From Candidatus Peregrinibacteria bacterium (GTDB lineage Bacteria > Patescibacteriota > Gracilibacteria > Peribacterales > Peribacteraceae), in NCBI GenBank assembly GCA_016196295.1, contig JACPYA010000041.1:1-50737 (forward strand): DNA of 50,737 nt, read 5' to 3'. Below are positions 7,104-42,648 of this stretch, piece after piece; position 1 is the stretch's first letter; each line of letters begins with the position of its first letter. A program made the position numbers and the translations under genes. The notes below the pieces were generated by a model. That model made no database searches. It worked only from the letters and a program-made list of their open reading frames with translations, and was not told where the DNA came from.

Positions 7104-7560
7104 AGTGAGTAGTGAGTAGTGAGTAGTTTGTAGTGAGTAGGAAACTTCTATACAGTGAACCGCTATGCCCATTCAGAGCTATCGGGATCTTATTGTGTGG
7201 CAAAAGTCCATGGATCTTGTGACCCTCGTCTACAAACTGACCAAGGACTTTCCAAAAGATGAGTTGTACGGGCTAACGTCGCAAATGAGACGGAGTGCTG
7301 CATCCATTCCTTCCAATATTTCAGAAGGAAGCAGAAGATCTACACGCAAGGAGTTCAGAAGATTCCTCTGTATCGCTTATTCGTCAGGAGCTGAGCTGGA
7401 AACTCAATTAGAAATCGCTATTCGCCTCGAATATGGTAATCTGGTGTTCATTCAGGAAGCTCAAAATCTCCTTACAGAAATTATGAAGATGCTTAATAAA
7501 ATGACTTATTCACTCAAGCCAGCAGTCTCTGTTAACTACTCACTACCAACTACCCACTGA
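7103..7560 (+). mobile_element. IVS-like hairpin element carrying a four-helix-bundle gene, inserted between pyrH and frr
   Basis: The 5' arm at 7103-7141 is (GTGAGTA)n-like (AGTGAGTAGTGAGTAGTGAGTAGTTTGTAGTGAGTAGG). The 3' arm at 7536-7558 (CTACTCACTACCAACTACCCACT) is its imperfect complement. The ORF lies in the loop. Confidence 0.7.
7165..7560 (+). CDS. Four-helix-bundle protein (23S rRNA intervening-sequence protein family)
   Basis: 131 aa: YRDLIVWQKSMDLV...FPKDELYGLTSQMRRSAASIPSNISEGSRRST-KEF..FL.IAYSSGAELETQL is the family signature. Confidence 0.9.
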   Translation: MPIQSYRDLIVWQKSMDLVTLVYKLTKDFPKDELYGLTSQMRRSAASIPSNISEGSRRSTRKEFRRFLCIAYSSGAELETQLEIAIRLEYGNLVFIQEAQNLLTEIMKMLNKMTYSLKPAVSVNYSLPTTH

Positions 7561-12678: not shown

Positions 12679-12685
12679 TCCTATA

Positions 12686-14209: not shown

Positions 14210-14395
14210 ATCATTGGTATGAACCCCAGAGCAAGCTCTGGACTCCCTCTTCTGGAGCAAGCTCCGGGGAACCCGCCTGATCCGAACGATCAGATCGTTC
14301 GGGCGGGTCAAACCATCGACTTCGCTTGCAGTGCCACAACACAAAAAGCCCCTTGTCCGGCGTAGCCGAGCGGAGCGAGGCGAAGTCGGATTGAC
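14210..14395 (-). ncRNA. Candidate structured RNA, copy A (unclassified)
   Basis: The 186-nt core is homologous to 29004-29210. An AT-rich TATTAT box lies just upstream on the minus strand. Several hairpins are retained even where the sequence is replaced. Confidence 0.5.
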
Positions 14396-16424: not shown

Positions 16425-16469
16425 AATATCGGCGTAGTCCCGTCCCGCGCATGCGGGAGGACGAAGCCG
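16425..16469 (-). repeat. Inverted partner of the 45-bp module at 12686-12730
   Basis: A perfect 45/45 reverse-complement match. Confidence 0.9.
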
Positions 16470-16588
16470 CATTACAAAGCGCGATGCCGTATCCGCCACA
16501 ACCATGTTGCGCAAAAGTACATTTCTTTGTGAAAAGACTAGTCGCTCTGATAGCATGATCGTTAATTTACCCCTCCCCCACTTCTCCT

Positions 16589-20395: not shown

Positions 20396-20495
20396 CGGTT
20401 TTTGGTTTATGGTTTTTTGTTTTTCGTTCGGCAGATATACGAATGAAATCGCGTGTTCTCGGAAAACGAAAAACCAAAAACGAATCAACGAAAAA
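20396..20495 (-). repeat. ORF-less simple-repeat hairpin between gnd and the M23 peptidase gene
   Basis: The plus-strand arms are GGTTTTTGGTTTATGGTTTTTTGTTTTTCGTT and AACGAAAAACCAAAAACGAATCAACGAAAAAC, with a loop of about 30 nt. The architecture matches the arms around the four-helix-bundle genes. Confidence 0.6.
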
Positions 20496-21944: not shown

Positions 21945-22375
21945 GATATGTTGGTAGCTTGGTAGCTTGGTAGCGGGGTAGCTGGTTTGGAAGTTCCGAT
22001 GCGATTTGGTTTTGTATGTTCATGTAAATAACGCATTAATTTTGCTAGTTGTGCTCCGATTTTTTTGGTCATCGCTGAAGCCTCTTCAAATTCCTTTTCT
22101 AAGACATACCCATCGTCCAGACCGGGATACAGCAGAGATCGAACCTCTGCAGCTGAGCGCTTTGCATAACCGAGAAACATAATGAATTCTGGATTCGTGG
22201 TCGCATCGTTCCCCTCTGCAATATTCGCCATTATGGAAACCGTAGCTCTGCTAATTTGATCGGCCCAAGCCCAATCTTTTTTTGCAACCGCCCTTTTCGT
22301 AAATTTTCGAACCAGTCGCATTAAGCTGCGAGCTTCTTTCCACGCCTCTATGTCTTCAAAGGATGCGAATGCCAT
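21935..22375 (-). CDS. Four-helix-bundle protein (23S rRNA IVS protein family)
   Basis: 146 aa: SFEDIEAWKEARSL...ADQISRATVSIMANIAEGNDATTNPEFIMFLGYAKRSAAEVRSLL. Confidence 0.9.
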   Translation of the reverse strand: MAFASFEDIEAWKEARSLMRLVRKFTKRAVAKKDWAWADQISRATVSIMANIAEGNDATTNPEFIMFLGYAKRSAAEVRSLLYPGLDDGYVLEKEFEEASAMTKKIGAQLAKLMRYLHEHTKPNRIGTSKPATPLPSYQATNISCN

Positions 22376-22425
22376 AAAAAAAAATTAACGAGCTACCAAG
22401 CTACCAATGCTACCCAGCTACCTTC
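21945..22425 (-). mobile_element. IVS-like hairpin element carrying a four-helix-bundle gene, inserted between tal and gnd
   Basis: The arms are (GGTAGCT)n at 21950-21990 on the plus strand and (AGCTACC)n at 22390-22425. In gene orientation the G/T-rich arm is at the 5' side, as at 7103. Confidence 0.7.
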
Positions 22426-24602: not shown

Positions 24603-24793
24603 AAGTTGGCGGCATTATTGGCATTCGCGCCTCTATGTCAATTTGATCGTTTGCTTGAGCTGAGAATCCTTCATCCCTACACTCAAAATGACCGCAGGCG
24701 GGAATGCCTGCCGCTCCCCTTTCATCCATGCCCCGTTCCAGACCTCCGAAAGAAACACTCATCGGGAAAGATCCGTCCATTGTTCCCCTTTCG

Positions 24794-27148
24794 ATGCAGC
24801 GAATCTTCCAGACACAGGAGCAGGTGGAAAGCATCTGGATTGGGCCAGAAGATGCCAAAAAGTTGAGCACAGATGACCTGAAAGCCTACGACCTCGCGAA
24901 GAAGATCATGGCGCACCTCTGCATCCAGGCGCCGACCAAACACAAGTCCGGGCACCCCGGCGGACCGCTTTCCTCTTTCACGTTCGCCTACTTCCTCTAT
25001 AAGCGCCGTGATCTGTCTACCGATGCGCCCTTTCGCATGAGCGCCGGGCATTTGAGCCTGCTTGCCTACGGGCTCCAATGGCTGTTCCATCGCGAGGGAT
25101 CCGACCCTCGACTCCAGAGTCCTCAGACGATCATCGATGCGTTCAGGGTTCCCGACGGGCTTCCCGGTCACGTGGAGGCGGGCATCGGCGACATCCCGTT
25201 CGGCGCGGGCCCGCTGGGGAAAGGCGTCAGCAATGCCCTCGGTGTCGCGTTTGGCATGCAGTACCTGAAGAAACAGGGTGCCGTCGATGTCCTGATGGCG
25301 GACGGCGACGCGCAAGAAGGACAGATCATGGAAGCCTTCCGTCTTGCATCGCACTTGGGACTCGGAAACCTTCTCGTTCACGGAGATTTCAACGACATTC
25401 AGTTGAGCGATATGCCGAGCCGCACGGTGGCTGCGGACTTCGCGCAGATCGCGAAGGCAGCAGGGTGGCAAGTGATCGAGGTGCAGAATGGGAATGACCC
25501 GGGACAAGCGGTCGCGGGGCTCGACCTCGCCGATACGCTCCGATCCAAAGGCAAACCCATCTTCCTCTGCTACTACACGACCATGGGCCACGGCGTGAAG
25601 GTGATGGAGGAAGGCTCGAACACCGGGAAGGCGAACTACCACGGCTCGCCGCTCAAAGATGACGTCGCGGCGCAGGCGCTGAAGGATCTGCCCCCACTCG
25701 AGGAGCTTGTCACGCAGTACCAGCCGTACCGACGACAGTGGAAAGTGGAAAGTGCAAAGTGGAAAGCCGGTCCATTGTCTCCCCCGCCGAAAATCGAGAG
25801 AACCATCACGGCGGAAAAAGGCGCGGCGCGGCAGGACTTCGGCGCGGTGCACCTGAAAAATCTCATGAACGCCGATGCGCGCATCGTCATCCTGCACGCG
25901 GACCTCGCGGCGTCCGGCGGCTTCGACCCTTCGGCGCGCTTCGCTTGCTCAGGGCAAGCACCTCGCGTCATAAACGTTGGCGTGGCGGAAGCGAACATGT
26001 ACATGATGGCGGCGGGGATGCGCCAAGCGGGACTGCTCCCGGTGACCTACACGTTCGCGGCTTTCGGCACGAATGAAGCGAGGGCGAACGCGCGCCTCAT
26101 TGACATCAATTGCGGCCACACGCGCTGCGCGGTGCTCCACGACTGCACGCACGCGGGGCTCTCCGTCGGCGAAGACGGCGAGACGCATCAAGAGCGAAAT
26201 TACCTGAATATCCCGCTGGACCGCACGCAGGTCTGGATGCCAGGCGACAGCAACCAAGCGGCGGCGATGGCGGAACGCGGGATGGAGCTGATCGCGGAAG
26301 GCACGACGAGCGTCTATGTCTTCTTCCCCCGGAGCGGCCACGAGCAGCTGAAAACTCCCACAGGCGAAGTGATCTACGGAAAAGAGTATCGCTTCGACGG
26401 CAAAATCGACCTCATCCGCGGCAAAAACGACGCAACCGACCAGGTGACGATCATCGCGACGGGCATCCCCGTCCATGATGCGGTGCTGGCCGCGGATGCC
26501 CTCGCAGCGAATGGACGAGTGGAAAGAGGAAAGAGGAAAGAGGAAAAAGAACGGACAAAACTTTCCACTTTCCACTCTCCACTTTCAACTTCTCCGCACT
26601 TTCCACTTTCCCTGCCCGTCCGGCAGGCGGGCACTTTCAATTTTCCACTTCGTGTAAGAGTGCTGAACGTCTCCTGCGTCCGCCCCATCGACGCCTCGGC
26701 GATCATCCAGGCGGCGCTCGAGACGTCGCATTTGATCGTCGTCGAAGATCACCACAGTGAAGGAGGACTCGCGACGCAGGTCGCAGACATCATCGCGGAC
26801 TTCCAGCTCCCCTGCTCGCTGCGCCGTCTCGGCGTGAACCACTATTTTCCCTCCGGCACGGACAAAGACCTCAAGTTCCTCGCCGGTCTCGACTGGGAGA
26901 GCATCGTGAACGCGGTGCTGGATGAATTACACTCGGAAGTGACGGGAGGCGAAGATGCTCTTGTAACAGCCATTTTTGCGATGTCGAAGAATGCGAAAGA
27001 GAGCCGGTTCCAGGATGCCGCGGCACCCTTCATCGATCGGCTCAAAAACGAGAAAGGCTATCTGGAATCCTTGCGAGCCGCGTGGGCGAAGCGCTCCTGT
27101 CCGCCGGAGAAGCTGCCGGACAATGCGCGGCTCAGAAGTCTGATCTGA
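24794..27148 (+). CDS. tkt: Transketolase (N- and C-terminal halves fused) with repeat-derived insertions
   Basis: It contains HPGGPLS, GDG..QEG (the ThDP site), a Pyr domain (GVAEANM) and a C-terminal domain. The ATG at 24794 is the likely start. See the findings for the insertions at 25737 and 26516. Confidence 0.9.
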   Translation: MQRIFQTQEQVESIWIGPEDAKKLSTDDLKAYDLAKKIMAHLCIQAPTKHKSGHPGGPLSSFTFAYFLYKRRDLSTDAPFRMSAGHLSLLAYGLQWLFHREGSDPRLQSPQTIIDAFRVPDGLPGHVEAGIGDIPFGAGPLGKGVSNALGVAFGMQYLKKQGAVDVLMADGDAQEGQIMEAFRLASHLGLGNLLVHGDFNDIQLSDMPSRTVAADFAQIAKAAGWQVIEVQNGNDPGQAVAGLDLADTLRSKGKPIFLCYYTTMGHGVKVMEEGSNTGKANYHGSPLKDDVAAQALKDLPPLEELVTQYQPYRRQWKVESAKWKAGPLSPPPKIERTITAEKGAARQDFGAVHLKNLMNADARIVILHADLAASGGFDPSARFACSGQAPRVINVGVAEANMYMMAAGMRQAGLLPVTYTFAAFGTNEARANARLIDINCGHTRCAVLHDCTHAGLSVGEDGETHQERNYLNIPLDRTQVWMPGDSNQAAAMAERGMELIAEGTTSVYVFFPRSGHEQLKTPTGEVIYGKEYRFDGKIDLIRGKNDATDQVTIIATGIPVHDAVLAADALAANGRVERGKRKEEKERTKLSTFHSPLSTSPHFPLSLPVRQAGTFNFPLRVRVLNVSCVRPIDASAIIQAALETSHLIVVEDHHSEGGLATQVADIIADFQLPCSLRRLGVNHYFPSGTDKDLKFLAGLDWESIVNAVLDELHSEVTGGEDALVTAIFAMSKNAKESRFQDAAAPFIDRLKNEKGYLESLRAAWAKRSCPPEKLPDNARLRSLI
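26516..26652 (+). mobile_element. ORF-less hairpin element of about 135 nt inserted in frame in tkt
   Basis: GTGGAAAGAGGAAAGAGGAAAGAGG ... CTTTCCACTTTCCACTCTCCAC form inverted arms. The CCCTGCCCGTCCGGCAGGCGGGCACTTTC hairpin is identical to the one at 42510-42540 and 42576-42606. Confidence 0.7.
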
Positions 27149-27175
27149 GAGATCAGCCGTTCAGGCGGCGGAGCA

Positions 27176-28255
27176 TCAGTACTTCCTCGTTCCATTGAGC
27201 ATGATGGTCAATCCCGATCCCGCGATGGTGGAGCCGACCTGGTCGATGGAGAACCGGATGACCGACCCCTCGGTGAGCGCCGTGGTGCTGAAGATGCCGG
27301 TCTTGGCGCTCGTCTTCGCGCTCACCGCGATTTGCGGCTTCGTCGAGTAGATGCTCGTTCCATCTTTGAAGACATCGACGATGATCGCGGCGCCGGTCGG
27401 CGCGACATTCACGCGGAGACTTCCCGTGCCGAGCGTGATGCCGTACGGCATCGTCACCACGGCGCCGCCCGTGGCCGTCACGAAGAGTCCCCCTTCGAAG
27501 AACCAGACCATGGAACTCGTCGGTGTCTTCCAAACGGGAGCGGACAAGCCCTGCGAGAGGATGATCTGCCCGGACGTTCCTTGCGCCGTGCGGCTGAGCG
27601 TCCCGCCGCTCGTGAAGGCGATCGCGCCCGAGCTCATAAAGTTGTTTGCCTTGATCAACGAACCGGAGATGTTTCCGGACACTCGCAGGTTGCTCTTGAA
27701 CCGTGACGCGTTGCTCACGACCAGCGATCCCGAAGCGTACAGGCCGCCGGTCACGTTCAGGTCGTCGCTGAATTCAAACCGGTCTTCGGCGTTCAGGAAC
27801 TTCAAGGTCTCGTTCGTCGAGTCGGAACCGAACGTGAGGACGGCGTCCGCTGCTCCACTATCCGAATTGATGGAGAGGTCCGCCTTCGTTTTGACCTCGC
27901 CGCTCACCGTGAGCGTTCCCGAACCCGTGATATTGCCCTGCACGTGGAGGTCGTCGGTGAATTCAAAGCGAGCCGGGGCGCGGTTCCAGTAGAGTTTCTC
28001 ATTGAGCGTGCCGCCGAAGCGGATCTCGACGTCCGTCAGCTGGTCGCCCTCGTCGATGACTTGGAAGGATTCGGTATTCACGAGCAGCGTCGGGCTCCAG
28101 CTGGAGGTCGCGGCAGAGACCCCCGTGCTCGCGAGCAGGACCATCGGAGCGAGGAGCCCCGCAAGGACGCGGGACAGGCTTCGCTTCGTGCAGTGCCGGC
28201 GATGGCGCAAGGCGCGGATCACGGCTGAGGAGGGCAAGAGGAAGATGCGGGACAC
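27176..28255 (-). CDS. Secreted repeat protein (tail-fibre or beta-helix-like repeats), paralogue of 36255-37808
   Basis: 359 aa with a signal peptide. The N-terminal roughly 170 aa are nearly colinear with those of the 517-aa protein (SWSPTLLVNTESFQ.IDEGD...TLKFLNAEDRFEFSDDLN.TG). Confidence 0.75.
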   Translation of the reverse strand: MSRIFLLPSSAVIRALRHRRHCTKRSLSRVLAGLLAPMVLLASTGVSAATSSWSPTLLVNTESFQVIDEGDQLTDVEIRFGGTLNEKLYWNRAPARFEFTDDLHVQGNITGSGTLTVSGEVKTKADLSINSDSGAADAVLTFGSDSTNETLKFLNAEDRFEFSDDLNVTGGLYASGSLVVSNASRFKSNLRVSGNISGSLIKANNFMSSGAIAFTSGGTLSRTAQGTSGQIILSQGLSAPVWKTPTSSMVWFFEGGLFVTATGGAVVTMPYGITLGTGSLRVNVAPTGAAIIVDVFKDGTSIYSTKPQIAVSAKTSAKTGIFSTTALTEGSVIRFSIDQVGSTIAGSGLTIMLNGTRKY

Positions 28256-28842
28256 GGCGCTTCGTCAGGGCCCCGAAGCAGACGCGCGCGCAGCGCCTCT
28301 GTATTCGGAGACCCGAGAAGGACGAAGAGGAGAATCAGGTTGATGACGACGCTCGCGCACAGGAGGCCCATGGCAAATCTGCTCCATGCGAAACGCGGAG
28401 CGCGGGCTTCGCCGGTCTCCGGCGCCTGCTCTGCGCGCGCGACGGGCGCGGGGGCCGCCTGCGTTTCCGCAGGCCGTTCCACCGCGACCGGAACGGACGG
28501 CGTTGCATCCGCGGGCACCGTATGGAGCGCCGCGATGCAGGATCGCAGCTTCTCCGGGAACGGAGCGGGTTTATCCTCCAGGGACCGCAGATCATGCGGA
28601 TCGAACCTCTTCAGCCATCGATAAAACGTCGTCCGGGCGATGCCGAATGTCCGGCACGTCCTGCTGATGGACCGGTGCAGGGCGAAGTCCGAGAACCACG
28701 ACAGGCGCTCGACGACTTCGTGACGCATGTGCTCCTGCCGCGCGCGCGCGAGGAGGGACTGCAGGTGCTCGAAGCTGATGGGGAGCAGGGACACGGGGAT
28801 GGATGTTTGTGCGTGTGGAGCGCGATACCTGTCGCGCGACAA
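28219..28842 (-). CDS. Membrane-anchored helix-turn-helix protein (transposase-N-terminal-like HTH)
   Basis: 207 aa: RLSWFSDFALHRSISRTCRTFGIARTTFYRWLKRFDPHDLRSLEDK resembles the IS481/IS3 HTH. It also has a C-terminal TM helix (GLLCASVVINLILLFVLLG). It has no DDE domain. Confidence 0.7.
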   Translation of the reverse strand: MSRDRYRAPHAQTSIPVSLLPISFEHLQSLLARARQEHMRHEVVERLSWFSDFALHRSISRTCRTFGIARTTFYRWLKRFDPHDLRSLEDKPAPFPEKLRSCIAALHTVPADATPSVPVAVERPAETQAAPAPVARAEQAPETGEARAPRFAWSRFAMGLLCASVVINLILLFVLLGSPNTEALRARLLRGPDEAPCPASSSCPPQP

Positions 28843-29003
28843 ATCCTGTTATTATACGCCTGCGGCCCCTTTTCTTCAAGGGAGACGCGTCCTGCGTTCT
28901 CCCGAGGAGGGCTCTTTTCTGCAGCGCTACACTTGCCTCCGTACGGCTGTCGCGCTCCATCCGGAGGGTCACAATGGTCACTGGAAATTATATTTACTAT
29001 TCT

Positions 29004-29210
29004 GTCAATCCGCCTTCGTCCCGCAAGTGCGGGACTGCGCCGGACAAGGGGCTTTTGTGTTGTGGCATTGCAAGCGAAGCCGATGGTTTGACCCGCCCGA
29101 ACGATCTGATCGTTCGGATCGGGGCGGGTTCCCCGGAGCGTGCTCCGCAAGGGGGAGTCCAGAGCCCTGCCTGCCGGCAGGCAGGTTGCTCCGGGATTCA
29201 TACCAATGAT
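29004..29210 (+). ncRNA. Candidate structured RNA, copy B (unclassified)
   Basis: The 207-nt core is homologous to 14210-14395 in reverse orientation. It is preceded by the AT-rich TTATATTTACTATTCT. It carries an extra perfect hairpin (CCTGCCTGCCGGCAGGCAGG) at the tip of a conserved stem. Confidence 0.5.
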
Positions 29211-29244
29211 CAGTGTGCCGCATCGATTGCCCGCTCACGTGTCC

Positions 29245-30045
29245 TTACCAGTCGAGAAACCAGAAGAAGTGCCTCCTTCTCTTGGCGGGCGTCCCCCCCA
29301 CGCTCGCGGCGGGCTTCACCTCCACGCCGACCCAGTTCCACTGAGCGGCACTTGTCCCGAACGCATCAAAATTCATGGTGACGGCTGTGCCAGACGGGGT
29401 TGTGTCGGAAGCCTTGTTCACCGCAAGCCCAGAGATTAACCCACTAAGATGGAAGGGATCTTCCGTGTCCGTTGAGGTAGGGGATCCCAAGGCGTTCCAG
29501 TCGTCCGCACAGCCAAATCCGCGCGAGTTATTCACGGTTGATGTGTAGATCGTGGGGGTGATGTTGTTGGTGTTGGAGTCCCCCTCGCCGCTCGCTCCGA
29601 TGGGGGAAGAGGTGTCGTGGCCCGTGATCACGTACACCTTGATCGCTTTGGCAAGCTTACTGGAGTTCGATGTCGCAGAGACGGTCATGCCCGTCCGTCC
29701 AGTCGTGAGCAGGGCGTACGCAGCAGCGGCGTTACCATCTGAGATGCTGCTCTCGAATCCGTCTCGCGAAACGATTTCCGTCCACGTCAGTGCAGCACCA
29801 TTGTTGGTTATCGTGATCGTCACGTCCTCGTCGTTCAAAGAGTCGCTAAGCACACAGACAAGGAGCAGCGAGGAATCCGGTGGGTTGAACGCTGCCGAGG
29901 TGACTGACGTAGAGTCTAGCGCTACGAGCGCAGGAGTTGAGGCATCGATCGCGATGGCTGCCTGCGCAATCGTTGGCAGCAACACACTGCAGATCGTCAG
30001 CAAAGAAACAAGGAAGCGCCGTACGTCTGTCCTCGTGATCATCAT
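29245..30045 (-). CDS. Secreted protein homologous to the C-terminal domain of the 1576-aa giant
   Basis: Starting at MM (30045) gives a signal peptide (FLVSLLTICSVLLPTIAQA). About 230 aa align with residues 1340-1576 of the neighbouring gene (..GRTGMTV.AT...K...KVYV..GH...SPIGASGEG...NNITP..YTSTV.NS.GFG..DW..). Confidence 0.75.
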   Translation of the reverse strand: MMITRTDVRRFLVSLLTICSVLLPTIAQAAIAIDASTPALVALDSTSVTSAAFNPPDSSLLLVCVLSDSLNDEDVTITITNNGAALTWTEIVSRDGFESSISDGNAAAAYALLTTGRTGMTVSATSNSSKLAKAIKVYVITGHDTSSPIGASGEGDSNTNNITPTIYTSTVNNSRGFGCADDWNALGSPTSTDTEDPFHLSGLISGLAVNKASDTTPSGTAVTMNFDAFGTSAAQWNWVGVEVKPAASVGGTPAKRRRHFFWFLDW

Positions 30046-30293
30046 GCCGATACGAAATGAACGCGCGGTCGTACGGATCATGCTGCTGGGAGAATTACCA
30101 TACACGATCAACTGTTCCGGCGGAAGCCGGAAGCAGTTGACAGGTCGCCATACGGCTTCGCGATATAAACGCAACGGATGTTTCATGCCGTGTTACAAAT
30201 AGCGGCGTAGCGATGTCGCTTCGCCGCTATTGATGATGTATTGCATGAGTCATTAATGATGTTTATATCGCAGAGCCGTATCAGATCTTGTCC

Positions 30294-33200
30294 TTAATTT
30301 CCCGGCCGTACTTCAAAGCCCACCCAGTTCCATTTCGTGGCAGCCGTGCCCGCAGCATCGAAATTCATTGTGACCGACGTTCCTGCCCCGGCGGTGCTGG
30401 CCGCTTTGGAGGCACTCAACCCAGAAACAAGGCCCGCGACGTGGAAGGCATCTTCCTCGTCCGTTGAACTAGGAAATCCGGAGGCATTCCAATCAGCGGC
30501 CACGCCGAACCCAAGGGAGTTTGATACTGTTGATGTATAGAGAGAGGGAGTGATGTTATTGGTCGTGGAGCTGCCTTCGCCGGAGGCTCCGATCGGGCTA
30601 ACAGTGTTGTGGCCGCTCACCACATAGACCTTCATCGATAGTCTCTTCGCTTGATCGGTCATCGTTGCCGTGACCGTCATGCCGGTTCGTCCGGTGGGGA
30701 GCAGAGCATAGAAGGCACTGGCCTCTCCTTCCTGCGCTCCAGGATCGACAATACTTCGTTCCCGAATGAGCGTCCACGGAATGGCGGTTCCATTGTTCGT
30801 GATGGCAATATTGGGGTCACTCCCTATTGCTGCATCTGCGGAGATCAAGACCAGAAGGAGAGCATTGTTCGGAGGATTAAACAAGGCTGTCGTAACAGAC
30901 GTATCGCCGGTCACGCGGGCCGGACTGGAGGGATCAATGATGATAGTCCCCGTCGTCTGCGTATTCGCCGTCGTCACCGTGACCGACGAAGCAGCGGTAT
31001 TCCCCGCCGCATCCCGCGCACGTGCCGTGAGGGTATGACTGCCATTACTCGCTGTCGTCGTGTTCCAACTGATGCTGTAGGGGGAGGTCGTGTCTTCCGT
31101 TCCAAGGTTCGCGCCGTCGAGGAGGAATTGCACCCCGGCGACGCCCACGTCATCCACGGCAGTGGCGGCAACCGTCACGGCGCCCGTCACCGTTGCCCCG
31201 TTCGCAGGAGCGGTCATGGAGACTGCGGGGGGAGTGGTATCAACGACGTTACTCACTGTCACGTTCACAATGGCAGATGCCATCTGATTCCCCGCAGCAT
31301 CTCGTGCACGTGCCGTGAGCGTATGGCTCCCGTTTGTCGCAGTGGTGGTGTTCCATGACACCGAGTACGGACTGGTTGTGTCTTCTGCACTCAGGTTCAC
31401 CCCATCGAGGAGGAACTGGACACCGGTGACGCCGACGTTATCTGCAGCATTCGCGGAAACGATGATGATACCTGAGGCTGTTGCTCCGTTGCTGGGACTC
31501 GTGACGGAGACGGCGGGGGGGAGGGTATCGGGAGTGCCGGAGAACGTCAGCGTGAAAACGCTGTTCCCCGGAGCTGTGAACGAGAAGGCGTTACCGCTGA
31601 CAGGGATATCCGCACCGCGGGTGAAGTTGTTGGAGTTGTCCGTGACGTAAAACTCCAGCATGGGGACAGCCGGCAGGTTCGCCAGCGTCGCCGAGAAGTT
31701 CACGTCTCCAGCGCCGGCATTGCGGCCGACAATCGTTACGCGACCGGTGGCGGAATGATGGAAGGCGTAGATCGTCACGTTACCGTTCCCTTCATTCGCC
31801 GCGATCCTCCGCGATCCTCCAGGGACGAACTTGAAGAGCTGTGCGAATTCATAGAAGGCCTTGCGCGGTGTGTACGTGCGTGTTCCGGTATCGTAGGAAA
31901 GGAGCGCCGTCCCATTGCCGACGTCATTCGGCGGCGTCGAGCCGCGGCCGGCGCGGGTCGCGTGGTTGTAGACGCTATCGTAGCCGTCCCAGACGAGGAT
32001 GGCCGAAGGGCCCTGGCCGATGTGCGCGAGCGTATCCCAGATATTAGAGACTTCCGTAATCCAGAAGTTCTTACCGGGGGGCATGGCAGCTCCTGCACCG
32101 CAGGAATCGCCGGCGTAATTATGGAAGGAGAAGTGATCCAATTTATTCATCACCGTGGCATTGCCGGTAATTTCCGGCACGTAGCTGTTCACGCCGGTGC
32201 AGACAGCCGCAGTGTCCGGGCCGACGAGGCGCAGATCGCCGAGGCCGATGGCATCGAGTTTGTTCGCCAATTTCTCGAACACGCGCGGCAACTGGAACGC
32301 ATCCATGCGGACGCCTTCGTAGATATCCCAGTCGGGCTCGTTGGTCGGGGCGAAGAGCCCGAACTGCAAGCCGCGATTGTTGCGGGCATAAGAGGCGACA
32401 GCGGTGACGGTTTCGACCCATTCGTCCTCCGCTGTCGCTGTGGGGAGATCGGAGCCGCCGTTCCACAACGGGCCGCGACCCATGAAGTTCAGCATGAGAT
32501 TGTTCGTAATCCCCTTGCTGTTGAGGTACGCCATCGTCGCCCACAGCTCTTCGAATTTCGGCGTCGAGAAGAGGGAATTATAGTACGTCCAATCATAGAC
32601 GGCGGGGTCGGCATTGTCGTTCGCCTGCTCCCAGTCGGCCTCGTCGATGATCACGCGAAAGAGAGTGGAGCCGTTCTGATCGACCAGCATGTCGAGGGCA
32701 GGGCGCAGCTCGCCGTTGTCCCAACTTGCGGCATTCGCGCTGACGCCGAACCCGTCGATCGCCTGGAACTGCACGGCGCCATCAAGGGTAAGGGGTGTTC
32801 CGCCGCCGTTGCTCACCGTGACATTCACGACATTCGATGCCGCCACATTGCCGGCTTGATCCGTCGCCACGGCGGAGAGCTGATGACTGCCATTGGGGAC
32901 TGTCGCGGTATTCCACGAGATGGAATAGGGAGCAACTGTATCCGGAACGCCGAGATTTCCTCCATCCAATTTGAATTGCACGCTTGCGACACTGACATTA
33001 TCACTCGCCGTGGCGGCAACGCCTATGCTTCCACTCACGGTTGCCCCATTGAGGGGAGATGTGACGGAAACCGCGGGGGGCGTCGTATCGGGATTGCTGA
33101 CCGTCACGCTCACGGTCGTCGATGTCGTCTGATTTCCGGCTGCGTCCCGCGCGCGTGCCGCGAGGGTGTGATTGCCGTTGCTCGCGGTCGTGGTGTTCCA

Positions 33201-35024
33201 GGAGACGCTGTAGGGAGACGCGGTATCTTCGCTCCCAAGGTTCGCCCCATCGAGGAAGAATTGGACTCCCGCAACGCCGACATTGTCCGCCGCCGCCGCA
33301 TCGACGTTCACCGCAGCGGAGAGGGTCGAACCGCTTGCGGGAGCCGTAATGGAAACCGTTGGCGCGCTTGTATCGTTTTCCACGGCAACGTTCACAACCG
33401 CTGAGCTCGTGATATTTCCCGCTGCGTCCCTCGCCACGGCGGTGAGGCCATGGGGTCCATTTATCGCCGTCAGGGTGTTCCAGGAGACGCTGTAGGGCGA
33501 GGCCGTATCCTCGGGCCCAAGGTCCTGGCCATCGAGCTTGAACTGGACGCCGGCAACGGACACGTTGTCTGTCGCATTCGCTGCAACGTTCACGACATTC
33601 GTCACCGTGCTGCCGTCAGAGGGAGCTGTCAGAGATACAGCCGGAGGCTCGCTGTCGAGATTTTGGACGATCACGTTGACGATCTGCGATGTCGTGCTGT
33701 TGCCAGCCGCATCGCGCGCGACGGCGGTCAGCTGGTGCGATCCTTCCGATGCCGTCGTGGTGTTCCACGAGATCGAATAGGGCGATGTTGTGTCCTCGGC
33801 TCCCAGGTTTATTCCATCCAATTTGAATTGCACGCCGGCAACGGAGATGTTATCGGACGCAGTCACGTTGATCGAAATCGTTCCCGCAAGAACGGACCCT
33901 TCGATGGGCACAGTGACCGAGACGCTCGGCGGTGTCGTGTCGGCATTCTGCACGGTAACTGTCACGACGGACGACGTGGTGACATTGCCGGCCGCATCGC
34001 GCGCGACGGCGGTCAGCTGGTGCGATCCTTCCGATGCCGTCGTGGTGTTCCACGAGATCGAATAGGGCGATGTTGTGTCCTCGGCTCCCAGGTTTATTCC
34101 ATCCAATTTGAATTGCACGCCGGTGACGGAGACGTTGTCCGTCGCGGTTGCCGCCACGGACACGGAACCCGCGACGGTCGCGCCTTCCGTCGGAGCAGTC
34201 ACGGAGACAGCGGGAGGCGTGGTATCGGGGGCCGAGTCTACGGGCGTATTCATGTCCGCTTGGATCTCGGTGGCGCTGAGCGCGCGCTTGTAGATGCGCA
34301 CTTCATCGATTTGGCCCCGGAAGTATTCGCCCCATACGGCATTGCCGCCGATGCGCAGCGGGTCGTTCGAGGTCGTGATGCTGCCCGTGCGCGCGGTGCT
34401 TCGGATCAGGTTTCCATTCAGATAGAGACGCAGTGAAGATGCATCATATGTCACCGCGAGGTGCGACCACGCGTTCGTCGGGAGCGACGCTGAACCGTAC
34501 ACTGCCGGGTAGGAAGATCCCCCGCTCCGCAAGAAGCCGGAGGGAACGTTGCCTTCATTGCCGGAATTGGCATAGAGAGCGTAGGAAAGTTCTCCCGGCA
34601 CTTCCTTGAGGATCACCGTGCGCCAGCCAATCGAAGCCGTCGGTCGCACCCACGCCTCCATGGTCATGCCCGTCGTCAGATCCAGCGATCCGTTCGGATT
34701 GTCGGTGATATTGACCCGGTCGTTGCTGCCGTCGAAATTGAGCGCAGAAGCGCCATACTTCTTGTCCGTCGTCGTCCACGTGGCTTGGAAGATCGATCCG
34801 TTGTTATTATTCCCAGAAATGTCATTGAGCGTTGCGCCGGATCCCTCGTTGAATCCGTACGCGGCGACGAGATCGCTCGCTGCTTGCGCTTGAAGGCGCA
34901 CGAGCGGGAAGACAGGAGGTACGACGAAAACGAAGGCAAGCAGAACAATGCAGATTGCCGCAAGGCGATCGCGACTGGGAAGAACGAGACGCATGAAAGT
35001 GGAGGGAAACGAGTTGGGGCGCAT
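30294..35024 (-). CDS. Giant surface protein: signal/TM, LamG-like lectin domain, about 7 Ig-like repeats, clan-A glycoside-hydrolase-like domain, 3 Ig-like repeats, unknown C-terminal domain
   Basis: 1576 aa with a LamG signature (LNFDG..D.V......MT.EAWV...W.H.A.TYD...LRLY.NG...IDEVRIY). The units of about 95 aa read TTPP.VSVT.P..GATV.G.V.V.A.A.DNV.V.GVQF.LDG.NLG.EDT.SPYS.SWNT. The TIM-barrel-like part has TNEPD and WITEV. Confidence 0.85.
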   Translation of the reverse strand: MRPNSFPSTFMRLVLPSRDRLAAICIVLLAFVFVVPPVFPLVRLQAQAASDLVAAYGFNEGSGATLNDISGNNNNGSIFQATWTTTDKKYGASALNFDGSNDRVNITDNPNGSLDLTTGMTMEAWVRPTASIGWRTVILKEVPGELSYALYANSGNEGNVPSGFLRSGGSSYPAVYGSASLPTNAWSHLAVTYDASSLRLYLNGNLIRSTARTGSITTSNDPLRIGGNAVWGEYFRGQIDEVRIYKRALSATEIQADMNTPVDSAPDTTPPAVSVTAPTEGATVAGSVSVAATATDNVSVTGVQFKLDGINLGAEDTTSPYSISWNTTTASEGSHQLTAVARDAAGNVTTSSVVTVTVQNADTTPPSVSVTVPIEGSVLAGTISINVTASDNISVAGVQFKLDGINLGAEDTTSPYSISWNTTTASEGSHQLTAVARDAAGNSTTSQIVNVIVQNLDSEPPAVSLTAPSDGSTVTNVVNVAANATDNVSVAGVQFKLDGQDLGPEDTASPYSVSWNTLTAINGPHGLTAVARDAAGNITSSAVVNVAVENDTSAPTVSITAPASGSTLSAAVNVDAAAADNVGVAGVQFFLDGANLGSEDTASPYSVSWNTTTASNGNHTLAARARDAAGNQTTSTTVSVTVSNPDTTPPAVSVTSPLNGATVSGSIGVAATASDNVSVASVQFKLDGGNLGVPDTVAPYSISWNTATVPNGSHQLSAVATDQAGNVAASNVVNVTVSNGGGTPLTLDGAVQFQAIDGFGVSANAASWDNGELRPALDMLVDQNGSTLFRVIIDEADWEQANDNADPAVYDWTYYNSLFSTPKFEELWATMAYLNSKGITNNLMLNFMGRGPLWNGGSDLPTATAEDEWVETVTAVASYARNNRGLQFGLFAPTNEPDWDIYEGVRMDAFQLPRVFEKLANKLDAIGLGDLRLVGPDTAAVCTGVNSYVPEITGNATVMNKLDHFSFHNYAGDSCGAGAAMPPGKNFWITEVSNIWDTLAHIGQGPSAILVWDGYDSVYNHATRAGRGSTPPNDVGNGTALLSYDTGTRTYTPRKAFYEFAQLFKFVPGGSRRIAANEGNGNVTIYAFHHSATGRVTIVGRNAGAGDVNFSATLANLPAVPMLEFYVTDNSNNFTRGADIPVSGNAFSFTAPGNSVFTLTFSGTPDTLPPAVSVTSPSNGATASGIIIVSANAADNVGVTGVQFLLDGVNLSAEDTTSPYSVSWNTTTATNGSHTLTARARDAAGNQMASAIVNVTVSNVVDTTPPAVSMTAPANGATVTGAVTVAATAVDDVGVAGVQFLLDGANLGTEDTTSPYSISWNTTTASNGSHTLTARARDAAGNTAASSVTVTTANTQTTGTIIIDPSSPARVTGDTSVTTALFNPPNNALLLVLISADAAIGSDPNIAITNNGTAIPWTLIRERSIVDPGAQEGEASAFYALLPTGRTGMTVTATMTDQAKRLSMKVYVVSGHNTVSPIGASGEGSSTTNNITPSLYTSTVSNSLGFGVAADWNASGFPSSTDEEDAFHVAGLVSGLSASKAASTAGAGTSVTMNFDAAGTAATKWNWVGFEVRPGN
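33706..34123 (-). repeat. 133-bp perfect direct repeat at 285-bp spacing inside the giant gene
   Basis: 33706-33838 is identical to 33991-34123 by direct reading. The 285-bp spacing equals one 95-aa Ig-like unit. Confidence 0.9.
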
Positions 35025-35066
35025 GATGCCCCTCCAAACCCCCTTTGTACAGACCTACATTTTGAA

Positions 35067-35421
35067 TGGCGGAGAGGGAGGGTCTGCTTCGCGCTTTTGC
35101 TCTGCAAAGCTACGCAAGGCAGAGAGCTACGCAGACCAGAAATGTCGTTTTGCGAATGAATATCCAGAGCCTTGTTTTAGATAACGTTCAAATATCTCGG
35201 CTTTCTGTCGGTCTGAAAAAGTTACGACAACTTCGATTTTCCACGGAACATGCGGGCTTGTTGTTTTAGTCAGTGTGCGATTGTGCTCATCCATTCGCAC
35301 ACGAGGATCTTTGGTTGTGTATCCTACATATGTCATCCGGGGATTTTTGATGCTTCGCAGAAGATATACGTGATACATAGTTCCCTATCGTAGCCAATTC
35401 TGCAAAGCTTGCGAAGTAGGA
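35067..35421 (-). mobile_element. Putative autonomous GIY-YIG mini-element bounded by tRNA-Ser 3'-end copies
   Basis: The left boundary is TGGCGGAGAGGGAGGG (35067-82, the same 16-mer as the 3' end of tRNA-Ser(GCT)) followed by the hairpin GGTCTGC...GCAGACC. The right end is GCAAAGCTTGCGAAGTAGGA, followed by TGGCGG. The ends are homologous to the ends of the 67- and 75-nt ORF-less units. Confidence 0.6.
35127..35378 (-). CDS. Small GIY-YIG nuclease-family protein
   Basis: 83 aa: MYHVYLLRS...TYVGYTTKDPRVRMDEHN...AEIFERYLKQGSG. The stop codon TAG lies within the GCGTAGCT core of the terminal hairpin. Confidence 0.75.
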   Translation of the reverse strand: MYHVYLLRSIKNPRMTYVGYTTKDPRVRMDEHNRTLTKTTSPHVPWKIEVVVTFSDRQKAEIFERYLKQGSGYSFAKRHFWSA

Positions 35422-35583
35422 TGGCGGTTCTTCTCCGCAAGCTACGAAGAACATTCACTTGCATTGCTCTGCACGAGATCCTACGTAGCTTGCGAAGTAG
35501 GATGGCGGTTCTTCTCCGCAAGCTACGAAGAACATTCACTTGCATTGCTCTGCACGAGATCCTACGTAGCTTGCGAAGTAGGA
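35422..35583 (-). repeat. Two tandem 81-bp units (a 75-nt MITE-like element plus the TGGCGG duplication) abutting the 3' end of tRNA-Ser(TGA)
   Basis: The units start at 35422 and 35503, and the third TGGCGG (35584) is the tRNA 3' end itself. Each unit has two hairpins whose 12-nt loops (TTCGCAAGCTAC and GTAGCTTGCGGA) are mutually complementary. Confidence 0.85.
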
Positions 35584-35673
35584 TGGCGGAAGCGGGAGGA
35601 TTCGAACCTCCGATGCTCTTGCGAGCATACCTGTTTTCAAGACAGGCCCGATCAACCACTCCGGCACGCTTCC
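35584..35673 (-). tRNA. tRNA-Ser (anticodon TGA) with a long variable arm and encoded CCA
   Basis: The reverse complement reads GGAAGCGTGCCGGAGTGGTTGATCGGGCCTGTCTTGAAAACAGGTATGCTCGCAAGAGCATCGGAGGTTCGAATCCTCCCGCTTCCGCCA. Confidence 0.9.
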
Positions 35674-35760
35674 AAAATAATGATAGCAAATTGGTGCGGG
35701 GCAAGCCGTCGCCTTAAACCACTCGGGGCCGAAGGCCACCCTTCGGGTCTCCCTCTCCAG

Positions 35761-36262
35761 ATGGAGCGGAAAGCGTAAAGCAAAGAGCGTAAAGTGCGAA
35801 GGACAGAAAGAAACCGTAAAGCTGAACAGGAGATTTGCTACGATAGGATCATGCATCAAGATAGCCCTTTGAAGAGAAAAACGTACGCATTCGCGTTGCG
35901 CGTGACATTGCTCTGCAAAAAATTGATGGAAGAGAAGAAAGAATATGTTCTGAGTAAACAATTTTTGAAGAGCGCGACGAGTATTGGCGCAAATGTCGCA
36001 GAGGCCCAACATGCGCAAAGCCGAAATGATTTTGCAGCAAAGCTTTCCATTGCCTTGAAAGAAGCCTGGGAAAGCGATTTCTGGATTCATCTTCTCTGTG
36101 ATGCTTCGTATATCGGGCACAGCACAGGAGAGGAACTCTTGAGAGATCTTTCGGAAATCATCGCTCTCCTCACATCGAGCATCAAGACAGCAAGAAAAAA
36201 TTCCCTTTAAACTCGCCACTCTCTGCTCTTTGCTCTGCGTTCTACGCTCTCTGCTTACTTCT
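35761..36262 (+). mobile_element. IVS-like hairpin element carrying a four-helix-bundle gene
   Basis: The 5' arm is GGAGCGGAAAGCGTAAAGCAAAGAGCGTAAAGTGCGAAGG. The 3' arm is CTCTCTGCTCTTTGCTCTGCGTTCTACGCTCTCTGC (GCAAAGAGC/GCTCTTTGC and AGAGCGTA/TACGCTCT pair). Confidence 0.65.
35851..36210 (+). CDS. Four-helix-bundle protein (23S rRNA IVS protein family)
   Basis: 119 aa from the ATG at 35851: TYAFALRV..LCKKL...KEYVLSKQFLKSATSIGANVAEAQHAQSRNDFAAKLSIALKEAWES.FW..LL. Confidence 0.85.
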   Translation: MHQDSPLKRKTYAFALRVTLLCKKLMEEKKEYVLSKQFLKSATSIGANVAEAQHAQSRNDFAAKLSIALKEAWESDFWIHLLCDASYIGHSTGEELLRDLSEIIALLTSSIKTARKNSL

Positions 36263-37808
36263 TCGTCTCGATGTTGAAGTTGAACCAGCTGGCATCGGCG
36301 TACGCGCGGTCGGTGACGGCGGCGCCGGATGAGACCATCTTGATCATGAGCGTGATGTAGCTTCCTGACGCAAAGGCTCCCCCCGCTTCCGGTCCCGTGA
36401 TGGTGGCTGTCGTCCACGTCGTCGCCTTCAAGCTGGAGCCGCCCGTGAGAGGGATCGGCGTGTTGTTGGTGTCGAGCGCGCGGACTTCCAGCCAGCCTCC
36501 CGACGCGCGGTAGCGAAACTCCATCGGCTTCGTGCTCTCCCAGCCACTGAACTGGTCGGGGATGCGTACGCGCGAGATGATCCAGTAGTTCTGGTTGCTG
36601 GTCTTCGTCGATTGCCAGCGGTAGAAGTTCACGGTGCTGCCGGAGTCGTAGCGAAGGCCCAGCGAGCCGACGGCGGACGTGGCCGCGCCGCTCTGGAAGT
36701 AGATCGCGTGGGGATATTCCGGGTTCAAGAAGATCATCGATCCGCTGTTGCGGGTCACGGCGGCGGCCTGCGTATCGATGTCCGCGCTCCACGAGAGCTG
36801 TCCGGCGCCATCCGTTTTCAGAACCTTGCCCGATGCGGAACCGTCGAACGCCGGGAAGGTGTAGGTGACCCCGTTGAGACGGATCGTCGATTTGAAGACG
36901 GCCGCGCCGCCGAAGGTCACGGCGCCGGTGGCGCTGAGCGTGCCGGTCGTGTGGACGTCCTCCGAGAATTCAAAACGATCTTCGGCGTTCTTGAACGTCA
37001 CCGTTTCGTTCGTCGTATCGGAGCCGAAGGTCAAGACGGTGTCCGCCGCGGTCTGGTCCGCGTTGATGGTGAAATCTCCTTTCACGCTACCCGCGCCGCC
37101 GATGCTGAGCGCGCCGGATGCGGTGAGAACGCCGGTGGCATGCACATCATCGCTGAATTCGAAGCGGTCTTCCGCGTTCTTGAAGGTCACGGTTTCGTTC
37201 GTCGTATCGGAGCCGAAGGTCAAGACGGTGTCGGCAGCGGTCTGATCCGCGTTGATGGTGATGTCTCCTTTAATGGTGGCGGAACCGCCGATGACGAGTG
37301 CGCCGGACGCGGTGATGACGCCCGTCGCGTTGAGGTCGTCGCTGAACTCAAAGCGGTCTTCGGCGTTGAGGAACTTCAAGGTTTCATTGGTCGAATCGGA
37401 CCCGAAGGTGAGGACGGCATCCGCGGCTCCCGCATCGGCATTGATCGTGAGGTCTGCTTTCGTTTTCACGTTGCCGCTCACGGTGAGCGTTCCCGAACCG
37501 GTGATGTTCCCGTCCGCGCGAATGTCATCCGTGAATCTGAATTCGGCATTTGTCCGATCCCAGTAAATTTTCTCATTCAGCGTCCCGCCGAAGCGCAGTT
37601 CCACGTCCGTCGTCGAGTCACCCTCATCGATCGTCTGGAAGGATTCCGTGTTCACCAGCAGCGTCGGGCTCCACGCGGACGTGGCTGCGAGAGCTCGCGG
37701 GACACTTGCGAGAAGACCGCTCACGAAGAGAGCGAGAGCCGCGCTCGTCATGCGTTTCTTCAAGAGGAATGCCACGGTGCGTTTGGGTGTGTGCATGTGT
37801 GTGTGCAA
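36255..37808 (-). CDS. Secreted repeat protein (tail-fibre or beta-helix-like repeats)
   Basis: 517 aa with a signal peptide and three tandem units of about 65 aa (VLTFGSDTTNETVTFKNAEDRFEFSDDVHATGVLTASGAL.IGG). It is a paralogue of 27176-28255. Confidence 0.8.
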   Translation of the reverse strand: MHTHMHTPKRTVAFLLKKRMTSAALALFVSGLLASVPRALAATSAWSPTLLVNTESFQTIDEGDSTTDVELRFGGTLNEKIYWDRTNAEFRFTDDIRADGNITGSGTLTVSGNVKTKADLTINADAGAADAVLTFGSDSTNETLKFLNAEDRFEFSDDLNATGVITASGALVIGGSATIKGDITINADQTAADTVLTFGSDTTNETVTFKNAEDRFEFSDDVHATGVLTASGALSIGGAGSVKGDFTINADQTAADTVLTFGSDTTNETVTFKNAEDRFEFSEDVHTTGTLSATGAVTFGGAAVFKSTIRLNGVTYTFPAFDGSASGKVLKTDGAGQLSWSADIDTQAAAVTRNSGSMIFLNPEYPHAIYFQSGAATSAVGSLGLRYDSGSTVNFYRWQSTKTSNQNYWIISRVRIPDQFSGWESTKPMEFRYRASGGWLEVRALDTNNTPIPLTGGSSLKATTWTTATITGPEAGGAFASGSYITLMIKMVSSGAAVTDRAYADASWFNFNIETKK

Positions 37809-42240: not shown

Positions 42241-42314
42241 GGAGTGGAAAGTGAGACGGAGAGTGGAAAGTTGAAGGTGGAAAGTGGAAAGAGAAAAGGT
42301 TAAGATAGCAAACT

Positions 42315-42458
42315 ATGGTTCCTGAGCCCCTGCGATTTTGGCTGCGACTCATCACTGATGCAAGCTATGCTCCGGATACAAGAACAAAGCTACTGCAGGA
42401 AGAACTCACATCAATTATTTCCATGCTCGTTCAGAGCATTAAGACCGCCAAGATCGTC
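42315..42458 (+). pseudogene. Truncated four-helix-bundle gene (C-terminal helix region only)
   Basis: EPLRFWLRLITDASYAPDTRTKLLQEELTSIISMLVQSIKTAK aligns with the C-terminus of the 35851-36210 protein (ESDFWIHLLCDASYIGHSTGEELLRDLSEIIALLTSSIKTARK). The N-terminal two thirds are missing. It is flanked by GTGGAAAG / CTTTCCAC repeat arms. Confidence 0.7.
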
Positions 42459-42490
42459 CATAACTTTCCATTTACCACTTTACACTTTCC

Positions 42491-42622
42491 ACTCTTCACG
42501 GTCCGTAACTTTCCCTGCCCGTCCGGCAGGCGGGCACTTTCTACTTTGCACTTTTCACTCTTCACGGTCCGTAACTTTCCCTGCCCGTCCGGCAGGCGGG
42601 CACTTTCCACTTTCCATTTTGC
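42491..42622 (+). repeat. 66-bp tandem duplication (x2) containing the CCCTGCCCGTCCGGCAGGCGGGCA hairpin
   Basis: CTCTTCACGGTCCGTAACTTTCCCTGCCCGTCCGGCAGGCGGGCACTTTC occurs at 42491 and at 42557. Confidence 0.85.
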
Positions 42623-42648
42623 ATTTTCCACTTCCATTTAAGGCGCAT

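Follow-up and report, generated by a model that had tools for sequence, protein, structure and literature searches.

Small dispersed repeats (SDRs) of Nostoc, reportedly set out by Elhai and colleagues in 2008, are said to be hairpins of 21-27 nt with compensatory changes, often lying in tandem heptamers (short tandemly repeated repetitive sequences, STRR), sometimes nested in copies of themselves, and present or absent between close relatives. SDRs are reported from Nostocaceae only (PMC5861425). Rickettsia palindromic elements (RPEs), ~100-150 bp long and without a gene of their own, occur in frame in housekeeping and metabolic genes and are judged to suit the fold that the host protein adopts (PMC10969869). 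Repetitive extragenic palindromic sequences (REPs) are short palindromes, some of which are in frame in replication, repair and aminoacyl-tRNA synthetase (aaRS) genes (PMC3733652). In the 23S intervening sequence (IVS) of Coxiella, the 5' arm contains tandem heptamers, the stem formed by the inverted repeats is cleaved by RNase III, and the PF05635 open reading frame (ORF) is decaying (PMC4990558). Here we describe an insert in the transketolase gene (tkt) of a Candidatus Peregrinibacteria bacterium, an uncultured member of the Candidate Phyla Radiation (CPR) of the groundwater type. The gene is on a contig of 50,737 nt (JACPYA010000041.1, assembly GCA_016196295.1), the whole of which is referred to as the window. 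We consider it probable that the insert is selfish DNA which derives from a sister cassette at 42.2 kb, is translated as a disordered loop without a role, and is kept as nearly neutral. In the literature we found no description of PF05635 cassettes as dispersed intergenic elements of CPR, of ORF-less derivatives of them in genes, or of the 21-nt hairpin (21-mer) discussed below, and nothing directly relevant on cassettes that combine heptamers with a four-helix-bundle gene in CPR or on in-frame palindromes in Patescibacteria.

The tkt product has Transketolase_N, Transket_pyr and Transketolase_C domains (Pfam) and unites in one chain what the split-type transketolases have in two, with the split transketolase 6YAJ as its top match in the PDB. 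We identified 465 homologues at E<=1e-20, the top ones from Peregrinibacteria/Peribacteria (61-78% identity). In an alignment of 22 sequences, ~45 extra residues, from AADALAANG to RVRVLNVS, are found in the window protein only and are absent from the 21 homologues, which have the identities just given. Measured from A..A.D to RVLNV, the loop is 53 aa long in the window vs 5-16 aa in 20 of 24 Peribacteria tkt loci (those in which it can be delimited). Residues 244 and 245 of the C chain of 6YAJ are contiguous across the insert, and 44 query residues remain unaligned. The 135-nt stretch is a true insertion relative to homologues. A first-pass annotation of this DNA had proposed an ORF-less, in-frame stretch of about 135 nt (45 aa) in tkt, and exactly this length, with 45 codons and no stop, was recovered; no conserved segment of similar kind is present in the 21 homologues or in solved structures. 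Neither an empty-site allele, nor the window's own contig, nor another contig of the same species was found in the metagenome and genome collections searched.

The insert follows the first strand-helix unit of the C-terminal domain (VTIIATG...AADALAANG) and precedes the strand RVRVLNV. It starts ~35 profile positions into Transketolase_C, and the Pfam match picks up again at profile position 37. In an AlphaFold2 model of the tkt product (mean predicted local distance difference test score, pLDDT, of 78), the insert corresponds to residues 597-641 of the 806-aa gene call, with pLDDT <50 at residues 597-609 and 611-635, and stands between a confident helix (581-594) and a confident strand (643-647), as would suit the surface loop that had been suggested for it. 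Based on the resumption of the Pfam match, the contiguity in 6YAJ and the AlphaFold2 elements, we place the insert in the alpha1-beta2 loop inside the C-terminal domain, rather than at the junction of the Pyr and C-terminal domains, where it had been put before. The C-terminal domain of transketolase is not known to hold catalytic residues.

The first-pass annotation had set the borders at 26516-26652. The interval 26517-26651 fits better, since these are also the termini common to the insert and the 42-kb cassette, and since its deletion leaves AAD-ALAANGRV-RVLNV, the normal loop length of the family. Across the insert, the tkt frame reads ...ADALAANG-RVERGKRKEEKERTKLSTFHSPLSTSPHFPLSLPVRQAGTFNFPL-RVRVLNVSCVRPID. 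The ends, GAGTGGAAAG... and ...TTTTCCACTTC, are terminal inverted repeats. The left and right arms (Table 1) are separated by a 10-nt spacer and are 87-90% complementary, the range of the inverted-repeat pairs in which the proximal right arm takes part (I10, I12 and I19). Within the window, CACTTTCCAC with at most one mismatch is matched 24 times vs 2.3 expected, in clusters at 25.7, 26.5 and 42.2-42.6 kb, and tandem runs of period 7 number eight, compared with 0, 0, 1 and 0 for periods 5, 6, 8 and 9. No stop interrupts the insert in any of the three forward frames or in one reverse frame (four open frames were seen in 4 of 5000 composition-matched shuffles), and its GC content is 0.49 vs 0.60 for tkt. 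Together with its flanks (26505-26665) it is predicted to fold with -51.8 kcal/mol (z = -2.76), a stability reached by 2 of 200 shuffles.

Four cassettes with a common design are present in the window, at a density of about one per 12 kb over 51 kb; in each, inverted arrays of a cassette-specific heptamer flank a PF05635 gene (23S_rRNA_IVP, bAvd-like). The PF05635 ORF is present at 7.1, 22.0 and 35.8 kb, persists as a remnant at 42.3 kb, and is lacking in the tkt insert. One cassette separates frr from an amino-acid-kinase gene (PF00696) that is pyrH-like, judging from its place beside frr. Another is wedged between tal and gnd of the same pentose-phosphate cluster as tkt, genes that are separated by only 40 nt in the relative L124. 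These two cassettes, and the one between the S-layer homology (SLH) gene and the riboflavin-kinase gene (ribF), fit exactly between stop and start codons. The cluster of gnd, tal and tkt is thus host to a full cassette, to the ORF-less insert and to a solo array.

The cassette between SLH and ribF has two arms, the left one at 42242-42298, and an ORF (42315-42470) that is what remains of the C-terminal part of a PF05635 gene. Of this gene, no more than the last 40-50 codons are left (44% identical to the protein encoded at 35.8 kb, E = 4e-10), and the right arm comprises two 66-nt tandem units (D7), each with a hairpin (42514-42534 and 42580-42600). The insert and this cassette have both termini in common, GAGTGGAAAG ... 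ATTTTCCACTTC, of which the right one, ATTTTCCACTTC, is found at 42623-42634 in the cassette. The insert is co-linear with the left arm of the cassette and, hairpin included, with one of the two 66-nt units on the right; its proximal right arm is co-linear with 42459-42513, and the co-linearity of the right arm exceeds 80 nt. Because the termini are common and the arms co-linear, we interpret the insert as an internally deleted, ORF-less relative of the 42-kb cassette. The derivation from an IVS-type cassette, as first proposed from the letters of the sequence, is supported by these termini and arms, by the PF05635 remnant and by the three intact cassettes. In another Peribacter genome, an ORF-less (GTGGAAA)n...(TTTCCGT)n mini inverted repeat is located just 5' of tkt. 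The window itself has an intergenic ORF-less mini inverted repeat of another heptamer, (GGTTTTT)n ... (AAAAACC)n, at 20397-20495 between an M23 peptidase gene and gnd.

The hairpin of the insert was also said to occur twice at 42.5 kb, and this is borne out by the 29-mer CCCTGCCCGTCCGGCAGGCGGGCACTTTC, of which there are three exact copies in the window (26610, 42513 and 42579) and none expected (100 shuffles). When the 21 nt of CCTGCCCGTCCGGCAGGCGGG are removed, the heptamer phase is unbroken at all three sites (e.g., ...CACTTTC CACTTTC / CACTTTC AATTTTC..., with the stroke at the point of removal). The hairpin is a separate module, nested exactly in heptamer phase, and the insert is composite. 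By direct reading, the 21-mer is stop-free in six of six frames, and its seven codons equal three heptamers. Since it is 21 nt long and stop-free in every frame, it never breaks a reading frame. A variant, the 20-nt perfect palindrome CCTGCCTGCCGGCAGGCAGG (29166-29185), has paired stem changes and provides a filled/empty pair, as it is present in the 29-kb copy of a ~170-nt repeat and absent from the 14.2-kb copy. Variants with compensatory stem changes, CCTGCCTG..CAGGCAGG, were identified in L116, L121 and L122 as well as at 29166-29185 of the window.

Table 1. Coordinates of the insert, its parts, its host gene and related elements in the window.
Feature	Coordinates	Strand	Description
Transketolase gene tkt	24704..27148	+	ORF from 24704; database gene call from 24728 = 806 aa
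Insert, ORF-less derivative of heptamer-armed cassette	26517..26651	+	135 nt, 45 codons, no stop
Left arm of insert	26517..26549	+	GAGTGGAAAG AGGAAAG AGGAAAG AGGAAAA AG; purine-rich (G[TA]GGAAA)n heptamer run
Proximal right arm of insert	26560..26610	+	Pyrimidine-rich (CTTTCCA/CACTTTC)n heptamers, complementary to left arm
Nested GC hairpin, 21 nt	26611..26631	+	CCTGCCCGTCCGGCAGGCGGG; LPVRQAG in tkt frame
Distal right arm and right terminus of insert	26632..26651	+	CACTTTC AATTTTC CACTTC
Solo (GTGGAAA)4 array, second element-derived stretch in tkt	25737..25766	+	PP-Pyr linker; read as QWKVESAKWKAG
Intact PF05635 cassette	7104..7558	+	(AGTGAGT)n / (ACTACTC)n arms; E = 4e-39; inverted pairs I17, I21
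Intact PF05635 cassette	21950..22420	-	(TGGTAGC)n / (GCTACCA)n arms; E = 2.3e-24
Intact PF05635 cassette	35766..36260	+	(GCGTAAA/GCAAAGA)n arms; E = 1.6e-23; adjoins tRNA-Ser
Degenerate donor-like cassette	42242..42634	+	GTGGAAA arms; between SLH stop and ribF start

Heptamer arrays are present in several loops of these transketolases. The solo array in the PP-Pyr linker of the window tkt is inverted relative to 26561-26590, with 90% complementarity (I10) over a distance of 794 nt. In the closest relative (78% aa identity), both tkt sites are occupied by heptamer arrays that are in phase with those of the window but built of other units, that at the linker being a (CTAAAAA/CCAAAAA)4 array. Of the 24 Peribacteria loci, five clearly have heptamer arrays in variable tkt loops, the closest relative included, and a sixth does so more weakly; 7 of the 10 period-7 runs in these 168 kb lie within tkt, at three loops. 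The insert's own loop is occupied in L001, L009 and L010 and more weakly in L023; two other tkt loops are occupied in L001, L010 and L020. In L010, GCGGTGA is repeated at one tkt loop and its complement at another.

Two genomes have the same heptamer in opposite orientations in two tkt loops (25737-25766 and 26561-26590 in the window; 711-744 and 1686-1721 in L010). Opposed arrays ~0.8-1 kb apart could base-pair with each other once transcribed, or allow the Pyr-domain segment to be inverted, but the opposed orientation may be due to chance, because the arrays of L001 are direct. In the tkt of P0009 (L124), a small hairpin, CCGCCGATTTCAATCGGCGG, encoding the peptide ADFNR, is in frame twice, at gene residues 178 and 411, and two GC hairpins are present at about residue 600, in the same alpha1-beta2 loop as the window insert. 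The priA gene of the window has an in-frame (AAACCAA)n array at 851-885, TETKNQKPKTNQ, between its 3'-DNA-binding (3'BD) and helicase domains. Heptamers of the (AAACCAA)n type also occur in the tkt linker of the closest relative, and their complement is found at 20397-20424 of the window.

We propose that the source of the insert is most likely the sister cassette that is now at 42.2 kb. The SLH gene directly follows tkt in five relatives, including the closest one, and in one of the five it is followed by ribF; the SLH and ribF genes of the window, with the cassette between them, are 14 kb downstream of tkt. Given that tkt directly precedes SLH in the five relatives, an ancestral order tkt-SLH-ribF would put the cassette ~1.1 kb downstream of the end of tkt. 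Copying, presumably in this direction, may have occurred by transposition in trans, or by recombination or gene conversion between heptamer arrays. The PF05635 gene would have been lost by internal deletion, with the GTGGAAA arms and the nested hairpin staying behind. Transcription of the insert with tkt, and its translation as a ~45-residue disordered surface loop without a role of its own, are most likely because its 45 codons are free of stops, and it may persist because it is nearly neutral at the alpha1-beta2 loop. If the insert is translated, the marker peptides would be TKLSTFHSPLSTSPHFPLSLPVR and QAGTFNFPLR; if it is removed, the marker would be ...LAANGRVRVLNVSCVR.

Several points weigh against this reading. 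No target-site duplication is found at the tkt insert, where the flanks are ATGGAC and GTGTAAG, and none is found at the 42242-42634 cassette. Among the 30 window ORFs scanned there is no transposase, reverse transcriptase or REP-associated tyrosine transposase (RAYT), only fragments with a helix-turn-helix (HTH) alone. The count of copies of the element covers 50.7 kb of the genome and comprises one sister cassette and one solo array in tkt, plus other heptamer families. Translation and neutrality of the insert are deduced from the open frame and from the structural model, and in the RNA the arm stem and the terminator-like hairpin could be costly, or functional. An older array, instead of one insertion event, could also be the origin of part of the insert, because the arrays of the closest relative are in phase at both tkt sites; and, because the arrays of relatives occupy the same loops, an insert that landed here and one that recombined into an older array are inseparable.

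This last point leads to a view in which the insert grew in place: the heptamer microsatellite of the loop would have expanded by slippage and then gained its complementary arm and hairpin from the neighbouring cassette, via gene conversion or illegitimate recombination. The arrays of L001, L009, L010 and, more weakly, L023 at the same loop, those of L001, L010 and L020 at other loops, the common phase of the window and L001 arrays at both sites, and the share of period-7 runs that falls within tkt are all in keeping with such growth. However, the array of each relative is built of a different unit, and a clean removal of 135 nt, bounded by the cassette termini, restores a normal loop. The right arm follows the cassette co-linearly for more than 80 nt, the exact 29-mer among them, which would be unexpected for independent growth, and we regard this origin as unlikely. 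It is a good deal harder to sustain that the insert is an RNA device in the tkt mRNA, acting as an RNase III site (the arm stem) or as an attenuator or terminator (the hairpin) that tunes expression or truncates the protein. The stable predicted fold, the RNase III cleavage of the Coxiella IVS stems, and the location of full cassettes exactly at gene boundaries inside operons are compatible with it, as is the hairpin, which was flagged as terminator-like with its tail CTTTCAATTT. The T tract is poor, though, and terminator-like sites in the region number 5 vs 3.8 in the shuffle expectation; given this lack of enrichment, a terminator role was dropped. Moreover, the insert is conserved in no relative, cleavage within an essential ORF would be harmful, and at E<=10 a search of 26300-26850 against Rfam gave only sub-threshold matches to generic, miRNA-precursor-like hairpins and no family.

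GC-rich 'byp' elements in yeast mitochondria are bypassed, as is the coding gap of phage T4 gene 60, and by analogy the mature enzyme might lack the insert because an intron, an intein or programmed translational bypassing removes or skips it. The first-pass annotation had allowed for removal at the RNA or protein level. Besides the analogy, the only feature pointing this way is the GGA codon that precedes the insert. No group I or group II intron or ribozyme was detected with Rfam, at the gathering threshold or at E<=10; an intein or an additional domain was rejected, as Pfam finds transketolase domains only and no Hint domain, and the ends of the insert have no intein junction residues. With exactly 45 codons and no stop, the segment leaves the frame open and has a length that is a multiple of three, and removal is not needed. 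In addition, the 21-nt module elsewhere always alters protein length by multiples of 7 aa, which fits translation. We judge removal or skipping to be very improbable. An assembly artefact, or decay of tkt as a pseudogene, deserves equally little credence. The repeats common to the insert and to 42.5 kb might mislead an assembler, and one contig only carries this protein, but unique tkt sequence runs on in frame on either side of the insert, and the insert differs from the 42.5-kb copy outside the 29-mer. As for decay, the columns that are invariant over the 22 transketolases (the window protein and the 21 homologues) are all retained along the 806 aa.

The 21-mer nested in the insert also occurs in very different bacteria and phages. 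Metagenome contigs searched for the exact 24-mer, CCTGCCCGTCCGGCAGGCGGG(CAC), gave 38 matches (L082-L119, 33-67% GC), most of them in frame in real genes, and a further 19 stretches were identified in IMG/VR (L126-L144), so that the overall range is 33-69% GC. Hosts include fmt, nadA, a Mur ligase, GluRS, a LeuRS-type aaRS and the C-terminus of MetRS. In a family of secreted SHOCT proteins, the 21-mer is at one site in nine diverged orthologues. The fmt hosts belong to a Dehalococcoidia-like lineage (L119-L123), and among Fmt orthologues with 82-92% identity there are three sites at which exactly 7 aa (PARPAGG, LPVRQAG) are present or absent, as well as nested 14-aa versions, giving proteins of 319, 326, 333, 340 and 343 aa. 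At the DNA level, 21 nt are gained per event and GCGGG is found at all three empty sites; the filled sites resemble 16 nt plus a 5-nt direct repeat, and the nested copies are in the loop of the first copy, with compensatory changes in the stems. A prophage in a metagenome-assembled genome of Bacillota (L143) has 10 copies in 14 kb, in both orientations, which are in frame in tape-measure (four copies), terminase and other structural genes; neither its DNA nor its capsid protein has a match among deposited phages. In L086, L097, L099 and L113, the 21-mer is nested in another hairpin, TCCGCC(A/G)(G/A)AGGCGGA, which encodes SASGG or SAIGG. This nesting suggests that several families of hairpin modules insert into one another.

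Since any stop-free 21-mer looks 'in frame', an origin of the 21-mer as a sequencing artefact was weighed. It was rejected, because the same site is occupied in diverged orthologues from different samples and compensatory variants exist; the nested copies and a tandem duplication (D7) that includes the hairpin also speak against it. The distribution and the filled and empty sites point to an insertion module of very small size and wide occurrence. A bolder reading, to which we give some credit but which we would not yet favour, is that the 21-mer represents a family of ultra-small mobile modules, so far undescribed and spanning phyla, that preserve frame and spread in essential genes and phage structural genes. 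Machinery acting in trans would then keep the copies alike, and the pattern of GCGGG and a 5-nt repeat, a possible sign of targeting, might agree with either templated repair or single-strand 'peel-and-paste' transposition. The heptamer-armed PF05635 cassettes would be one habitat of such modules, and maybe part of the same mobility system.

The surroundings of tkt contain further repeats. The ~14 kb between tkt and SLH/ribF (27150-41200) resemble an integrated island, with a tRNA-Ser gene (35584-35673), a partial tRNA repeated in tandem (two repeats of 81 nt, 35397-35558), two transposase-like ORFs that have an HTH alone (28222-28842 and 40352-40891) and a protein of 1576 aa whose gene contains repeats of about 285 nt. 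The ~170-nt repeat mentioned above occurs at 14200-14370 (+) and 29030-29215 (-); the two copies are inverted and 90% identical, flank a 14.7-kb segment that contains tkt, and have no match in Rfam. A further family of short repeats, which starts with ATACGGCTTCG, was identified at 12683-12730, 16425-16472 and 30150-30281. It includes one pair of 48 nt with 98% complementarity, 3.7 kb apart, and a local inverted pair at 30.15-30.28 kb. At the gathering threshold, Rfam detects three tRNAs only, and no rRNA, in the whole window.

The PF05635 'IVS' cassettes have been known mainly as oddities of 23S rRNA, and the present locus suggests that they behave as dispersed repeats able to enter genes. 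In this CPR genome, densely spaced cassettes appear to give rise to derivatives that have no ORF and are able to invade an essential gene, which offers a concrete route from selfish DNA to protein insertions. Heptamer arrays and 21-nt hairpins, both of them frame-neutral, together explain several of the differences in loop length among these transketolases. The modules leave low-complexity peptides (LPVRQAG, ARLPDGQ, PARPAGG) in metagenomic proteins, where they can mislead alignments, domain boundaries and structure predictions. The tkt case ties together IVS-type cassettes, heptamer arrays and a frame-neutral 21-nt hairpin found across phyla; if the 21-mer family is indeed mobile across phyla and phages, its mechanism becomes a new question.

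Compared with the 23S IVS of Coxiella, Leptospira and Salmonella, with its S23p/four-helix-bundle gene, the four window cassettes are alike in combining stem arms of heptamers with PF05635, and the tkt insert is alike in having inverted-repeat stem arms built of tandem heptamers. However, the cassettes are between protein genes, with one derivative inside a gene, and none is in 23S rRNA. The tkt insert lacks an ORF and hence is no IVS in the strict sense, and RNase III excision without religation is inapplicable to an mRNA that needs to be translated. The insert resembles a miniature inverted-repeat transposable element (MITE), as the first-pass annotation had called it, in that it is small (135 nt), has no gene of its own (only the host tkt frame runs through it), ends in terminal inverted repeats and has a larger relative with the same ends. 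It differs in having no target-site duplication, and the larger relative encodes only a PF05635 remnant and no recognised transposase. With neither a target-site duplication nor a known transposase, 'MITE' is used here as an analogy only. REP and REPIN elements inside ORFs are comparable as short palindromes, some of them in frame. By the definition of REPs in PMC3733652, the hairpin differs from them, since there is no GTAG/CGTC end tag and CGTC occurs only inside the hairpin; the 30 scanned window ORFs include no RAYT/Y1 transposase.

The 21-mer agrees with the Nostoc SDRs, as these are reportedly described, in hairpin size, compensatory changes, embedding in heptamers, nesting, and presence or absence between relatives. 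It differs in its hosts, which are Peribacteria, a Dehalococcoidia-like lineage, a Bacillota prophage and high-GC viral contigs. This comparison is one of descriptions. With the Rickettsia RPEs, the insert shares a position in frame in an intact housekeeping gene and a predicted exposed loop that is compatible with the fold. Its differences from RPEs are the tandem heptamers of its arms, the PF05635 cassette as parent, the CPR host and the nested 21-nt hairpin, and homology to the RPE families is unlikely given the heptamer build. By analogy, the closest counterparts of the insert appear to be the Rickettsia RPEs together with the SDRs and heptamer repeats of Nostoc.

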